A stretch of DNA of 64,000 nt, taken from IMG/VR virus record IMGVR_UViG_3300028653_000010. One strand, given 5' to 3'. Below, piece after piece: positions 108 to 52,604 of the stretch. Made by a program: the position numbers and the translations under genes. Each line of letters opens with the position of its first letter. Within the stretch, counting starts at the first letter, position 1. Under the pieces are notes generated by a model that saw nothing but the letters and a program-made list of their open reading frames with translations, had not been told where the DNA came from and searched no databases. This stretch comes from a virus.

Positions 108-377
108 TTGAACTGCTGGCAACCCTTTGGGTTCTCACTTAGAACCCCTGGTCGCCTACCAATAGTGGATGCTCAAATACTCAGAACACAACAGGAGATA
201 CGAGCTGCGCAAGATTCTCAGGTATTTGCGGCCCTCGATGCAGCTAGCACACTTAGGGTTACGGATCAGATTCAAGCTGCGTTTAACCCACCTGGACTAC
301 CTGTTACGAATCATCCTAAGCCACGTCCTGCAGTAAGAACGAGATACGAGCGAATCTTGGACTCATTCAAGACGTGA
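108..377 (+). CDS. hypothetical protein with C-terminal TRYERI motif
   Basis: ORF ends RTRYERILDSFKT. Start uncertain. Confidence 0.6.
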   Translation: MNCWQPFGFSLRTPGRLPIVDAQILRTQQEIRAAQDSQVFAALDAASTLRVTDQIQAAFNPPGLPVTNHPKPRPAVRTRYERILDSFKT

Positions 378-378
378 G

Positions 379-918
379 TCACGGGCGAGACAAGGTCGAA
401 CCCTTCTCAATTCGCTCTTGAGCTGTCAAAGAGGTTCGTATTAGCTCGATAAAGTTGGATTCATCATAGATAGAAGTACGAAACCCCTTCTGAGTCACAT
501 GATGAGTACCACCGGACTTCAGAGGAACCTCTTGCGCGGGCAGAGTTCGTATCCAACAGATCTTAACCTTGGCTCCGAACGCCGAGACGACAAGGAAAGC
601 CCCGTTGAGTAGCTCTTGATCGATTTGGTCTTTCCCAGAGCATTCACCCTCTACAGTACCGACAGCCCCAATGTTCCCTTCCAGCAGGTCGCCAATCGAC
701 CTGAGCCCCAGCTCTAGGTTCGGATACTCCCAAGAAGTAGTCCCAAGAGAGATGTGTATCCTCCGGCCCTTGGCCTCTGCCTTTAGCTCGGATCCGCGCA
801 TAACTTCCCTGAGGACCGTCGTTAGTACACGGTCAAATCTTTCATATCGGCTTAGTGGTTTGACTTGTGAGTCGATAACCTCGATGCTTCTCTGGTACCT
901 AGTCCGCGGCTCACTCAT
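379..918 (-). CDS. hypothetical protein with two N-terminal RYxR motifs
   Basis: ATG 918 gives MSEPRTRYQRS...SRYERFD. A TTGACA-N18-TAAATT element lies upstream. Confidence 0.65.
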   Translation of the reverse strand: MSEPRTRYQRSIEVIDSQVKPLSRYERFDRVLTTVLREVMRGSELKAEAKGRRIHISLGTTSWEYPNLELGLRSIGDLLEGNIGAVGTVEGECSGKDQIDQELLNGAFLVVSAFGAKVKICWIRTLPAQEVPLKSGGTHHVTQKGFRTSIYDESNFIELIRTSLTAQERIEKGSTLSRP

Positions 919-993
919 CTTGCCTAATTTAGTAGCATAAGTGTTCAAGTGTCAAGCTACATGACGATAATTATAGCTGACATTGGCACATCT

Positions 994-999
994 GGTGTA
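994..999 (+). promoter_or_regulatory. GGTGTA phage promoter-like element
   Basis: Recurrent motif, 56 nt upstream of the AAA gene. Confidence 0.45.
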
Positions 1000-1055
1000 T
1001 ACCTGTTGCCACTTTGCCTTGGAATAAGTAACAAGAAGAGGAGACACTGAAGAAC

Positions 1056-49609: not shown

Positions 49610-50086
49610 CTACTTTCCAAGAATAAACGACGTGATAGTGTTTCGGAAAATGTCCGATAGCTCTGGGGGAATGTTGAAACGCTTCTCATTCAAGGTGATA
49701 CTCCGGAAGATGTCACCATCCTCGTGACGCTGGGTAGACGCCCACCAGTCGAGAAGCATCTCAACCAGGTCCACCAGAGTCATGTCCCGGATGCCATGTT
49801 CAAAATGCTCTGGATGATGCCTATTATTTGCATAGTGGTGATCAAGAGCCGGCTTCATCTCGGCTAAGTACTGCTTGTACTCATCACTACCATAGGTGGT
49901 ACCTTTGAGTTTGCCTGTATATTCAGTGAACACTGGTAACTCTGCTTCAGAGAACTTGGAGTGGTCGTGCTCCACGCCACGATCCAAGAGTTGAATTGCA
50001 AAGTCCTTTAGAAGCATACGAACTAGGTCAACGTGCTTCTGAGTTTCAGCATTAGTCCTCAGCTCTTCAATAGTCAACTCAGGCAT
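49610..50086 (-). CDS. DUF5662-like HD-related protein
   Basis: HDHSKF, HHYANNRHHPEHF, EMLLDW. Confidence 0.8.
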   Translation of the reverse strand: MPELTIEELRTNAETQKHVDLVRMLLKDFAIQLLDRGVEHDHSKFSEAELPVFTEYTGKLKGTTYGSDEYKQYLAEMKPALDHHYANNRHHPEHFEHGIRDMTLVDLVEMLLDWWASTQRHEDGDIFRSITLNEKRFNIPPELSDIFRNTITSFILGK

Positions 50087-51086
50087 GATTTACATCAATC
50101 TTTGGTACTGCAGCTTGAGCGTCTTGTAGGAAGAACTCAAATGACTTGGGCTCCGGAAGCTCGAAGTGGGGCTCATCATACAAAGTAGCATCGAATGAGC
50201 TCGTAAACTCATCCACCTCACGTTTAGTTATACCACTCTCAACCATATCCTCGATGGAAACCCCGACAGCTGCACCATTGATGCGAGTCATGTTAGGCTT
50301 GAGTCCAGTGGACGTCTTATTCAATAGAAGACTGAGGATCTGCATCTCTTGACGACTAAAAGTGTGAGCCTTGAAATTGTAGTCAGCCCAAGCTGAGAAC
50401 AAGGAGGGCCACCCGCGTTCGAGTATCCCAGCGATGATGTTAGCAAAGACTCGAATCTCCCACTGAGCATGAGGATCGCACCGGAGCGAAAGGAAGTGCA
50501 TCAGGTTGTGGCCATCGATCTTCCAACGCCACTGAGTGTATGTCGACAAGGGCAAGTCAATCCGAGCCAGCTCGCGCGCCACATCCTCAGCAATGAGCCA
50601 CTCATAGGTCTCTTGAACTCGGTCCCTTACATCTCCCCAACGATGTACCGCTTGACTGTGAAGTGCTTTCTCTTCCCCTTCAGATCTCCCTTGCTTGTTG
50701 CTCTGGGACTGCTTGGCGAAATGCTCAGCCTCAGGAGTGTGGAATAACATCGGGAGGATGCTGTACCGTCCACTCACCTCATTGATAGAGGCCGTTCGAT
50801 GGCGGACCCACTGGCGAGCAACGAAGATTGGCATTGAGCAGTGGAAGTGAAACTCCACGAACTCGAATGGGCTCGTGTGCTTATGACGTCTGAGATACCG
50901 GACCAAGCCAGTGTCGTTACTGGTAGCCTTGGTACCATGCCCATAGCTCGTACGAGCGCAGGTTGGTACTACCTGATCAGTACCCATGTAGTCCATCAAA
51001 GCAACGAACCCATGGTCGAGAACGGGGAAGTAATCGCCGAGTATGGCTTCAGCTGCCTCAGAAGTAGGGCGTTTAGTCTCTGCCAC
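50079..51086 (-). CDS. thyX: FAD-dependent thymidylate synthase
   Basis: HTSPFE, PIFVARQWVRHRTASINEVSGRY, ARELARIDLP, FLSLRCDPHAQWEIR. Confidence 0.95.
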   Translation of the reverse strand: MAETKRPTSEAAEAILGDYFPVLDHGFVALMDYMGTDQVVPTCARTSYGHGTKATSNDTGLVRYLRRHKHTSPFEFVEFHFHCSMPIFVARQWVRHRTASINEVSGRYSILPMLFHTPEAEHFAKQSQSNKQGRSEGEEKALHSQAVHRWGDVRDRVQETYEWLIAEDVARELARIDLPLSTYTQWRWKIDGHNLMHFLSLRCDPHAQWEIRVFANIIAGILERGWPSLFSAWADYNFKAHTFSRQEMQILSLLLNKTSTGLKPNMTRINGAAVGVSIEDMVESGITKREVDEFTSSFDATLYDEPHFELPEPKSFEFFLQDAQAAVPKIDVNHA

Positions 51087-51730
51087 GGAGTATCCTTTCG
51101 TACCGGGTTGGTATCTTTGATCTGTCGATCAAGTCACCAGGATTTATCGTGCAAGATACACCGGCGTGACTCATTATCGACTTAACTAGCTTCAAATCGT
51201 AATTCTCTATATTCTTGGATATCTCAAGAGTTAGTAGCGACTGATGCCCTAACGAGACGGAGGGTCCATTAATAACCCTACCCATACGTTGAACAGAAAG
51301 TACTACAGCAGTTGATCCTAAGTCCCCCTGAAACATAGCGGATAGATACCGAGACAGACGCTATAGAGCCATCTAACTCAACAGTGAACTTACTCACCTC
51401 ATCCACCACAATCAGGTTAGCTCTGTTCTTTTGGTTGCCCGGATGCAAGAGCTTAGACGTGAGGTGGGCTAGGTCCCCAACCGAGTTTAAGTTAGAAACT
51501 ACAGGGTACTTAGAAGAATAGCTATGCAAGCTACCCCCGTTTGGTTCAATCCACACAACTGAGAGGCCTCTATCATGAACCTGTTCACAGATCTTCTTAA
51601 GAACAGTAGTTTTCCCACTACCAGGAGCACCAACTAGCAAGCTCAAACCCCCGGTAGGGAACCCCCTGCAATCGCCATCTCCGGCAATCATCCTATCGAG
51701 GGCAGTGAACCCAGTAGATACGAATGGCAT
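51073..51730 (-). pseudogene. RecA/RadA-like ATPase split by a frameshift
   Basis: 5' ORF: STGFTALD, GAPGSGKTT, IVVDEV. 3' frame: RLSRYLSAM...STAVVLSVQ...LKLVKS, ending PTRYERIL. Confidence 0.6.
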
Positions 51731-52296
51731 TACAAGCTCGACTTCACTCTAGCAATGATCTCATCCCATGAACGGACTCTCAAATGATCGTAGCCCATGT
51801 CCCTAGTAGCCCTGGTATCCCATAGCATTGGTTCCATACAAGGATTTCCTTCAGCCCAACTTAGAACGTTGTCCAAGTTGTCATCCAAGAACCACTTACC
51901 CGCCACCGCATACTTCGAGCTGGCAAGGTAGACGTCCCCTTTTGGCATTCCGAACTCTCGTTCAAGCCAGGCATAACGTTCATCGAACCACTCACTATGA
52001 AACGGCCAAGTCACAGCAAGCACCTTGACTAGGCCCTGCAACTCACGAATTGCTTCCTTGGCCCCAGGTAGAACTGAGAGGGACGCACAGAACCCAGGAG
52101 CCCCCATTATCTGAAAAGCCTGCTTCTTTTGATCTTCGTCTAACACACTGAAGTAATCCCAAACTGTAAAGTCATCGGGCGCATACACCCCCCCAGAGAC
52201 ATTATTGATGATCTGTAGAACTCGAGGCCGAAGGTCCGCTAGGACATCGTCGACATCAACAAGGAATCTACGATTAGCTAGGGGTACCAATGGCAT
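51730..52296 (-). CDS. 5'(3')-deoxyribonucleotidase (HAD, NT5C-like)
   Basis: LVDVDDVLAD, LPGAKEAI, FLDDN, RVRSW. Confidence 0.85.
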   Translation of the reverse strand: MPLVPLANRRFLVDVDDVLADLRPRVLQIINNVSGGVYAPDDFTVWDYFSVLDEDQKKQAFQIMGAPGFCASLSVLPGAKEAIRELQGLVKVLAVTWPFHSEWFDERYAWLEREFGMPKGDVYLASSKYAVAGKWFLDDNLDNVLSWAEGNPCMEPMLWDTRATRDMGYDHLRVRSWDEIIARVKSSL

Positions 52297-52316
52297 TCCC
52301 CTCTTACACCGATGAA

Positions 52317-52604
52317 TCAGTCCTTGTCACGTGCTTCAGCAATATTCTGCAGCACTCTAGAGTAACGGTCGGTATCGGTCTTCCATCCGTCAATTCGATG
52401 ATCAAGAGCGGCTTTGACCTGATCTTGTTCTTCTAGGGTACGGGCGCGCTGGTAGAGAGCGCGGAACCCATCAGCCTCTTGCTTGTTGAGGAACCCGGAA
52501 AGCTCGTAGGCCGATACTGCAATAACGTAGCTATTCTTCCGTTTCCGAAGGAGGCTGCTCACTGCCCGATGGTAGCGTAAGTCCGTAAAGCGGTCTACCC
52601 CCAA
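52317..52604 (-). CDS. hypothetical protein with DRYSRV motif
   Basis: 95-aa ORF; start uncertain. Confidence 0.55.
   Translation of the reverse strand: MGVDRFTDLRYHRAVSSLLRKRKNSYVIAVSAYELSGFLNKQEADGFRALYQRARTLEEQDQVKAALDHRIDGWKTDTDRYSRVLQNIAEARDKD

Follow-up and report, generated by a model that had tools for sequence, protein, structure and literature searches.

A short, predicted helical tag on unrelated proteins of a clade of large phages and its putative co-evolving reader

The 64,000-nucleotide stretch of virus record IMGVR_UViG_3300028653_000010 analysed here (the window) encodes a short peptide of the type TRYERI[LM], hereafter called the tag, which is found in 12 copies on 11 otherwise unrelated proteins. 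The tag is a real, protein-level element that has been grafted onto existing folds. It is predicted to be a helix, and its copies change in concert in each lineage of the related phages. It is considered, with a probability of about 0.8, to be a docking tag that acts in trans and has one co-evolving reader. The candidate preferred for this reader, with a chance somewhat short of even, is the substrate- or adaptor-binding part of a phage AAA+ unfoldase, either the Rpt-like ATPase encoded at 1056-2306 or the ClpX-like protein at 44225-45487. The other parts of that probability fall to the capsid interior and to some other phage or host hub, and the minor remainder beyond it is made up of docking on a kinase-fold protein, a tag with no shared reader and readings not named here. 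Binding in trans, the identity of the reader and the consequence of docking are what we infer from the patterns described below.

The preliminary description of this DNA had reported the motif [T/S/N/D]-R-[Y/F]-[E/S]-R-[I/V/F] on about 10 unrelated proteins, and all of its sites were recovered at the same positions and on the same strand. The lack of relationship among the 11 carriers was borne out, as they remain dissimilar after the tag is masked (best BLASTP E value 0.28). Counted against shuffled controls, as that description had suggested, the pattern has 10 matches in the 86 window proteins (20,380 residues), compared with 0.02 on average and never more than 1 in within-protein shuffles (n = 300), an enrichment of approximately 500-fold, and TRYERI[LM] is observed five times against an expectation of 5e-5. 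All 10 six-frame matches of the pattern lie in the frames of called genes. The codons differ at nearly every synonymous position (ACG, ACC, and ACT for Thr; AGA, CGA, CGC, CGG, CGT, and AGG for Arg; GAG and GAA for Glu), which agrees with the proposed selection on the peptide, and because of this variation the tag cannot be a DNA repeat. The copies are as follows, with the residue after the core in parentheses:

339-356, plus strand: TRYERI(L), 7 residues before the stop of open reading frame (ORF) 108-377 (89 residues; start uncertain), with the linker HPKPRPAVR
886-903, minus strand: TRYQRS, the first copy of an N-terminal tandem in ORF 379-948
835-852, minus strand: SRYERF, the second copy of the N-terminal tandem in ORF 379-948
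2983-3000, plus strand: NRYERI(M), internal, at residue 133 of 206 in ORF 2587-3207, with the linker LPKRPSLIA
4457-4474, plus strand: SRFERI(Q), C-terminal, 14 residues before the stop of ORF 3542-4516 (324 residues), with the linker PRKPKAPPK
15413-15430, minus strand: TRYERI(M), in an N-lobe loop of the kinase-fold protein of ORF 14657-15562 (301 residues)
17941-17958, minus strand: DRYHRP followed by WVI and the stop, ORF 17929-18117 (62 residues), whose next gene downstream encodes a vWA-like protein (16945-17910)
20545-20562, plus strand: TRYERI(L), between the two CxxC pairs of the zinc-ribbon ORF 20338-20685 (115 residues) and followed by EPNPPDPNAP
36157-36174, minus strand: TRYSRI(L), C-terminal, 10 residues before the stop of ORF 36127-36687 (186 residues), with the linker AVAPSPEPY
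49191-49208, minus strand: (P)TRYERI(M), C-terminal, followed by ARW and the stop, ORF 49176-49607 (143 residues)
51091-51108, minus strand: (P)TRYERI(L), C-terminal, followed by RGRD and the stop, ORF 51073-51336 (87 residues)
52353-52370, minus strand: DRYSRV(L), C-terminal, 12 residues before the stop of ORF 52317-52604 (95 residues)

The site at 17941-17958, formerly rated as weak, is a twelfth copy on a 62-residue ORF that ends ...WWPDRYHRPWVI directly before the stop. The tag had been described as usually near a terminus after a proline-rich linker. Its position is near-terminal for most copies, with seven of the 12 no more than 15 residues from the C-terminus and two in the N-terminal tandem of 379-948, but the kinase loop and the zinc ribbon each hold an internal copy, and a third internal copy is that at residue 133 of 206 in 2587-3207. 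The linker was confirmed: in the 12 residues that precede the tags, proline accounts for 16.7%, versus 5.4% of the window proteome. The placement between the CxxC pairs of the zinc finger (20338-20685) also proved correct.

The comparative genomes and loci used throughout are IMG/VR relatives, of which L050, L052, L053, and G006 constitute clade B. Within orthologue families, the position of the tag is kept although the rest of the protein falls to 25-35% identity. For instance, the zinc-ribbon orthologues have the tag at the same place, reading TRFERIL in clade B and TRYERII in a clade A relative; the clade B counterpart of 17929-18117 is conserved in position and has two TRFDRIL copies; and the G007 orthologue of 379-948 likewise has two N-terminal copies, SRFDRTL and SRFEHI. 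The true start of 379-948 is probably Met11, judging from the 179-residue protein called on other contigs, and its copies would then stand at residues 6-10 and 23-27. The orthologues of 52317-52604 read DRYSRVL in L037 and DRYSRVM in L038; in the latter, a relative with 80% identity in the AAA protein, 49176-49607 has an orthologue that ends PSRYERIMANCRG. The G007 orthologue of 3542-4516 (54% identical) has a degenerate tag at its end, PKAPPKTRLERTTEEEGDE, and the G006 orthologue of 2587-3207 has an internal TRFERLL, which may be the counterpart of NRYERIM. The C-terminal end of 2587-3207 itself, ...NPLGLDFEAIVREALEKS, has the same pattern of aromatic, acid, x, aliphatic, aliphatic and, on its sequence, may be a second, degenerate copy.

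The form of the tag differs between lineages, and five variants were distinguished:

T-R-[YF]-[ED]-[RH]-I-[LM]: the window, G007, and clade B
T-[ACV]-W-E-R-L-L: G010
T-N-A-W-E-A-[LI]-[LM]: G008/G011
[TN]-L-W-D-H-L-[RK]: G013, on at least 30 proteins
x-[FY]-D-[HKR]-L-[LM]-D-E-D-L-F: G002

Within one genome, the same variant is found on the kinase-fold protein and on the other carriers. The clearest example of a tag that stays in place but changes in form is the family of 36127-36687, ending with TRYSRIL in the window, TAFDRIM in G010, NLYDHLM in G013, SLLDRLL in G014, TAFDHLL in G002, and NAFSRLL in G012. No other observation argues as strongly for a single co-evolving reader as this concerted change within genomes. 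The earlier proposal of a shared docking tag for one hub is partly supported, as all tags of a genome change together in the way that one shared reader predicts. A sliding clamp, which that description had named among the proteins to be tried as partners, was not found, no clamp family being matched among the 55 window proteins scanned. In the complete and near-complete relatives, the tags are enriched over shuffles, are mostly C-terminal with N-terminal and internal copies as well, and are clustered regionally. Carriers outside the window include an iron-sulphur radical SAM protein and an RlaP nucleotidyltransferase, and an SNF2-like helicase is a further enzyme among the carriers. Counts made with fixed patterns are lower bounds, because the G013 variant (LWDHLR) was missed until C-terminal tails were clustered de novo. 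A 183-kb contig of a close relative of the window, corresponding to it from about position 40,000 on, showed no enrichment of the tag pattern, and a megablast search of the phage collection found no close relative of the window.

Across the classes, the core of the tag is [ST]-x-aromatic-[DE]-x-[IL]-[LM]: a Thr or Ser first (in the window also Asn or Asp), an aromatic residue at +2, an Asp or Glu next, and aliphatic residues three and four positions after the aromatic. T, S, N, and D are the classical N-cap residues of helices, and one of these with Glu at N3 forms the classical capping box. In the window, all 12 copies begin with T, S, N, or D, and eight have Glu at N3, the acidic residue being replaced by Ser, Gln, or His in the remaining four. 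The aromatic and the two aliphatic residues come together on one face of the helix. Clade A tags have two added arginines, and most other classes have an acidic run after the core. In the AlphaFold2 models, the helix begins one residue past the Thr in the kinase-fold protein of the window and two residues past the Thr of the L062 variant T-N-A-W. The tag is thus predicted to be a short amphipathic helix with a capping box, presented on a proline-rich linker or a surface loop.

A degron at the extreme C-terminus, which depends on a free carboxylate, is not what these copies resemble. The core is followed by a variable tail of 4-14 residues in the C-terminal copies of the window and of 0 to 9 in the G013 tails, or it is N-terminal or internal. 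The tag works away from the termini as well, in the kinase loop insertion and in the zinc ribbon. Because copies are internal, N-terminal, tandem, or trailed by 0-14 variable residues, a tether is the better description than a terminal degron.

The kinase-fold protein of 14657-15562, whose record lies on a 443,068-bp contig, is a case of such grafting. It matches Pfam PF00069 and has an ordinary protein-kinase fold, into which an insertion of approximately 30 residues with the tag has been placed between beta2 and beta3, after the glycine-loop strands (EGDISEIFEG) and before the VLVKIAK strand of the alignment. The reported location inside the kinase N-lobe was supported by this alignment and by the AlphaFold2 model (71 sequences; mean predicted local distance difference test score, pLDDT, 95.4), which has a strand at residues 24-32, a coil, a helix at 46-55 (RYERIMDRES), and a strand at 59-67. 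The comparison with homologues from other phages, proposed earlier as a check, revealed that the insertion is lineage-specific and that in distant kinase-fold homologues this loop is short. In place of the HRD of kinases, the family has HGA, with H166 and G167 invariant and A168 conserved in more than 90% of homologues (including P0042-P0065 and L060-L081); with the catalytic aspartate missing, the sequence suggests that these proteins may be pseudokinases.

Other lineages place the tag at the N-terminus of the same kinase-fold family, and for this reason the tag is regarded as a movable module. In the lineage of P0034, P0035, and P0037 (locus L049), there is no loop insertion and the kinase-fold protein begins ...KTSYEYIMADDDG, while those of L056 and L062 begin ...ATNAWEALMADDDG. 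In the model of the N-terminally tagged L062 protein, the helix spans residues 19-24 with a pLDDT of 43-53, and the tag is accordingly predicted to be a free helical element unpacked against the domain. Altogether, 14 of the 16 kinase loci read that lack a J domain have the tag, L055 and L063 being without it. In many further relatives, a J domain with the HPD motif occupies the N-terminus of the kinase-fold protein, in place of the tag; the PF00226 match attains its cut-off in P0049 and lies below it in six others. No tag enrichment was seen in the 20-kb loci around these J-domain versions, and the literature search found no paper on the J-domain/kinase-fold architecture. A J domain is a portable recruiter of Hsp70. 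The swap indicates that the kinase-fold family needs a portable link to something, which in the relatives is an ATP-driven remodeller.

The genes around the tags are in part those of DNA replication and metabolism. The window is phage-like, with about 85 genes that cover 95% of it and lie mostly on the minus strand. Its replication genes encode a family A DNA polymerase, a DnaB-like helicase, and a primase zinc-finger protein, and its nucleotide and NAD metabolism comprises ThyX, NAMPT, adenylosuccinate-synthetase-like, NUDIX, and deoxyribosyltransferase proteins. DNA methylases, a transglycosylase, a ClpX-like unfoldase, and two classic AAA ATPases are also encoded. The tagged ORF 51073-51336 shares 14 bases with the start of thyX and is therefore considered coupled to nucleotide metabolism and replication; the kinase-fold gene overlaps each of its two neighbours by 4 bases. 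Three ATPases come into question as readers:

1056-2306, plus strand: single-ring AAA ATPase of 416 residues, its ATPase domain nearest to proteasomal Rpt/PAN (candidate reader 1)
44225-45487, minus strand: ClpX-like unfoldase of 420 residues that aligns over its full length to Escherichia coli ClpX (candidate reader 2)
54002-55570, minus strand: AAA ATPase of 522 residues, its ATPase domain nearest to Cdc48/p97 D2, with an N-terminal region of approximately 230 residues (candidate reader 3)

The Rpt-like ATPase has an N-domain of approximately 170 residues and a C-terminal tail with about 35 Asp/Glu, and is flanked by four tagged genes; its orthologues in G006, G007, and G010 also have tagged neighbours, which makes four lineages in all. 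Its acidic tail recurs in G007, G006, and the 35 closest clusters, while G010, G013, and G002 end with PYL, GVL, and ELV instead; the tail is thus present in five of five checked genomes with the Arg-rich variant of the tag and in none of three with other variants. One of the closest clusters with the acidic tail is encoded on a contig of 473 kb, on which the kinase-fold protein has the tag TRFDHIL. The N-domain can be aligned only within a tag class. Searches with this N-domain and with the C-domain of the J proteins described below against Atlas and Pfam gave no usable fold or family match, and the window ATPases showed neither a MIT domain nor an N-domain of the p97 type. The 35 closest relatives (among homologues P0186-P0305) have 23-28 Asp/Glu in their last 30 residues, often with one embedded Trp. 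Distant relatives end with the HbYX-like ...TYL, ...SYL, or ...QYI, or with ...[VIM]GF, which resembles a ClpP-docking tripeptide; these ends suggest that the protein descends from a protease-docking unfoldase whose tail has since been replaced.

The ClpX-like protein has an intact zinc-binding N-domain (PF06689 at residues 9-43), the GYVG pore loop, and the VGF ClpP-docking loop, with a 10-residue stretch in place of the RKH loop, which in E. coli ClpX helps to recognise the ssrA tag. The RKH loop is gone in five of five ClpX proteins of the tag clade, which keep [VIL]GF, and is kept in other phage ClpX proteins, including those of L007, L008, L011, L033, and L036. ClpX was identified in seven of the eight tag-bearing kinase-marked records searched, the eighth being a 28%-complete fragment, and in the tag-carrying G002 and G003. 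ClpP was not found in G010 and G007, both complete, or in G013; a clpP-clpX pair is present in G005, an unrelated phage of 497 kb. This phage is the sole large outgroup that has ClpX, and it has almost nothing else in common with the window. In G007, the ClpX gene is a single frame of 775 residues (G007:C1:280061-282388, L118) with an insertion of approximately 310 residues near Walker A that looks like an intein. The Cdc48-D2-like ATPase is followed by a gene for 392 residues (52815-53993, minus strand) in five of five relatives checked, with ClpX 4-11 kb off, and together they form a conserved block. At least four of the five tag-bearing genomes checked share each of the following: ClpX, the two AAA ATPases, the vWA-like protein, and about 25 further genes of the window. 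Because all candidates are shared by these genomes, presence/absence profiling cannot single out the reader.

According to the mechanism proposed, the tag would serve in trans as a tether between otherwise unrelated phage proteins and a single partner with which it co-evolves, and the tagged proteins would act as SspB-type adaptors or as clients. Each would deliver itself or its bound cargo to the ATPase ring, which would then remodel what is delivered or pass it on to degradation via the host ClpP. In a broader and more tentative form, the clade of 250-510 kb phages might have its own protein-addressing system, in which a helical tag read by a rewired ClpX or Rpt-like ATPase serves to organise, hand over, or remove sets of takeover and metabolic proteins, with the tag and the J domain as interchangeable plugs to a phage machine or to the host Hsp70. 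This would amount to a virus-encoded sorting or adaptor code with no described phage counterpart; the term "phage protein-sorting code", used in the preliminary description, is that of a hypothesis.

Several observations weigh against an unfoldase as the reader. The assignment is purely correlative, and the loss of the RKH loop, the acidic tail, and the gene neighbourhood each reflect one or two evolutionary events in one phage clade, so that shared descent could explain them; the J-domain swap is confounded in the same way, and it fits any other type of hub equally well. The G014 fragment has the J-domain version of the kinase-fold protein together with a few tags. The zinc-binding domain of ClpX is well conserved across the tag classes, unlike a surface that co-varies with the tag, and the ligand of this domain in E. 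coli is a basic beta-strand, LRVVK, and no acidic helix. Enzyme carriers such as the radical SAM protein, the RlaP nucleotidyltransferase, the SNF2-like helicase, and the kinase-fold protein would gain no obvious benefit from delivery to an unfoldase. Moreover, the capsid targeting sequence (CTS) of T4 is nearer to the tag in form than any AAA+ docking peptide.

This last likeness makes packaging a credible, if on balance unlikely, alternative, in which the tag would bind the scaffold, the core, or the inner capsid, and the cargo would be packed in proheads and injected with the DNA, as are the T4 internal proteins and Alt. The T4 proteins IPII and IPIII start with MKTYQEFIAE and IPI with MKTFKEF (AF158101), with the same T-x-x-E capping box and an aromatic and an aliphatic at i and i+3/i+4, but the hydrophobic register is off by one and the copies described here are mostly C-terminal. 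The small, fast-evolving, unrelated carriers match the T4 internal proteins, a highly diverse defence set of which the targeting sequence alone is conserved (PMC3012670), whereas an iron-sulphur radical SAM enzyme would be an odd capsid cargo. Many variants have [IL]-x-[ED] directly after the core, like the cleavage rule of T4 gp21; at C-terminal copies, however, cleavage there would not free the protein, and no conserved cleavage site lies between the tag and the protein body. Encapsulin cargo peptides are likewise borne on flexible linkers at either terminus. The tagged genes are translationally coupled to genes of nucleotide metabolism and replication (thyX; the kinase-fold gene), which are usually early or middle and not late, and packaging leaves the J domain as the alternative to the tag unexplained. 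PF03420, the T4-type prohead protease, was not found in G010, G007, and G013 in a search that had no positive control. Rather unlikely as well is docking on a hub of another kind, such as the vWA proteins (16945-17910 and 26672-29005), the Cdc48-like ATPase, the J-domain protein family, or a host chaperone, protease, or replication factor. The kinase-fold operon encodes the vWA-like protein of 16945-17910, which has a DVTGS metal-site motif (LDVTGSM, undetected by Pfam), is conserved in at least four of the five tag-bearing genomes checked, and has a tagged 62-residue peptide encoded directly upstream; binding of the tag to this metal site accords poorly with the replacement of the acidic residue by Ser, Gln, or His in four of the 12 copies. 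This 321-residue protein also has an internal HYWERLLG, which is similar to the G010 variant of the tag. The relatives G010, G007, G013, and G014 encode two to five J-domain proteins and no Hsp70, and hence already recruit a host machine by means of a portable module; on sequence grounds, these phages appear to recruit the host DnaK via several J proteins of their own. One conserved J-domain protein of 345-430 residues is present in G007, G010, G013, G014, and clade B, but no member was seen on a clade A contig and it is absent at the syntenic position in the window and L051, which has weakened the candidacy of this family as the reader. A phage Hsp70 was dismissed as the hub, none being found in any of the seven relatives searched, and a host hub conserved across hosts offers no obvious driver of the strong lineage-specific changes of the tag.

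The two other explanations considered are much less probable. That the tag has no shared reader at all, being a membrane-binding amphipathic helix, a protease site, or a solubility element, is very improbable: short terminal amphipathic helices on flexible linkers do serve as bacterial membrane-targeting sequences, but the conservation is far stricter than amphipathicity requires, and all copies of a genome change in step. With only three hydrophobic residues and acidic flanks in most lineages, the tag is unfavourable for anionic membranes, and the trimming of a few C-terminal residues by a protease would have no obvious effect. Least credible of all is that the tag is a docking site or phospho-acceptor read by the kinase-fold protein, whose own copy would be a pseudo-substrate or an activator in cis. 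The tag always adjoins the N-lobe in the 14 tagged kinase loci and has Thr or Ser as its usual first residue. Asn takes the first position, however, in P0010 and P0014, which are kinase orthologues, and two other copies in the window begin with Asn or Asp; because of these, an N-cap fits better than a phospho-acceptor. G013 has at least 30 tags and none on its own kinase-fold protein. The kinase-fold protein as a reader that docks its own tag in cis was rejected as the main explanation, since the N-terminal tag of L062 is predicted to be free and unpacked and the family has no catalytic Asp.

Some further observations stand beside these subjects. The J-domain family of 345-430 residues has a C-terminal domain of approximately 300 residues and more than 150 clusters in the protein database (e.g., L083:1787-2962 and L116:12851-14146), and the G010 member has LRVAARY at its N-terminus (L083:1787-1850). 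In the window, a second motif, [RK]-V-A-[ST]-[RK]-[YF], is represented by LRVATRF and RVVRRY at the ends of 42957-44198 and by RVASRY in 41875-42180 (minus strand); the LRVAARY of the G010 J-domain protein is similar to it. In G005, about 37 proteins, most of them 180-220 residues long and encoded in a tandem array, end with ...YWKE[ND]D[RK]YLxKIL (G005:C1:352560-371001, L184-L185, together with 27109-27432 and 311446-311760); instead of unrelated proteins that share a tag, these may be paralogues that have expanded.

The addressing of many proteins to a single partner by a short peptide that they share is a central principle of cell biology, as signal peptides, degrons, clamp-binding motifs, and the T4 CTS exemplify, and the phage systems of this type known so far are few and small. 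Literature searches found no paper on the tag strings and nothing relevant on C-terminal motifs of huge phages, and the tag is, as far as they show, undescribed. Identification of the reader would provide a first functional handle on much of the "dark" small-gene content of huge phages, together with a natural, portable tag-and-receptor pair. The lineage-specific variants allow cognate and non-cognate combinations to be compared, and the use of a loop and the replacement by a J domain are further entry points.

Among the known systems, clamp-binding motifs (QL[SD]LF, PIP box) are similar in being shared by many unrelated proteins, at a terminus or in a loop with a flexible linker, and in serving one hub. 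However, the Gln-anchored pattern Q-x-x-[ILM]-x-x-[FY][FY] is found in no copy of the tag, the window has yielded no clamp gene, and the carriers are mostly small proteins and not DNA enzymes. Encapsulin cargo peptides and the tail of HK97-type prohead proteases also consist of a conserved peptide after a Pro/Ala-rich linker, C-terminal or sometimes N-terminal, which brings unrelated cargo into an HK97-fold shell; the encapsulin peptides are Gly/Leu-rich and extended, with a consensus unlike the tag, and serve few cargo types per shell. The tag differs from ClpX degrons (ssrA, LAA-COOH; MuA, RRKKAI-COOH) in that it is not bound to the extreme C-terminus and the phage ClpX is without the RKH loop.

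The T4 CTS is alike in that a peptide of about 10 residues is the sole shared part of diverse, fast-evolving small phage proteins, and in its T-x-x-E followed by an aromatic and aliphatics on one helix face, a likeness of form only with no sequence homology. Its targeting determinants are residues 4 and 7 and its processing determinants residues 8 and 10, and the peptide is portable to foreign proteins (PMC9026906). The T4 sequence is strictly N-terminal and is cut by the prohead protease, while the tag is mostly C-terminal, in some cases internal, and has no evident cleavage site; only the tandem pair of 379-948 falls within the first 10-19 residues. The register is shifted by one residue, and the carrier genes stand among replication and metabolism genes.

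The tethers of AAA+ proteins, namely the XB tail of SspB, the VIM and VBM of p97 ligands, and the MIM recognised by the MIT domain of Vps4, share with the tag the design of a short, linker-borne, terminal peptide that is independent of the fold of its carrier and leads to an accessory domain of a ring ATPase, which is putative for the tag. VIM and MIM1 are Arg/Leu-containing helices, and MIM1 is located at the C-terminus of ESCRT-III proteins. The XB peptide LRVVK is a basic strand, whereas the tag is a predicted helix with acidic flanks as the usual case and does not conform to the XB consensus. The tandem copies of the tag, in turn, fit an oligomeric receptor.

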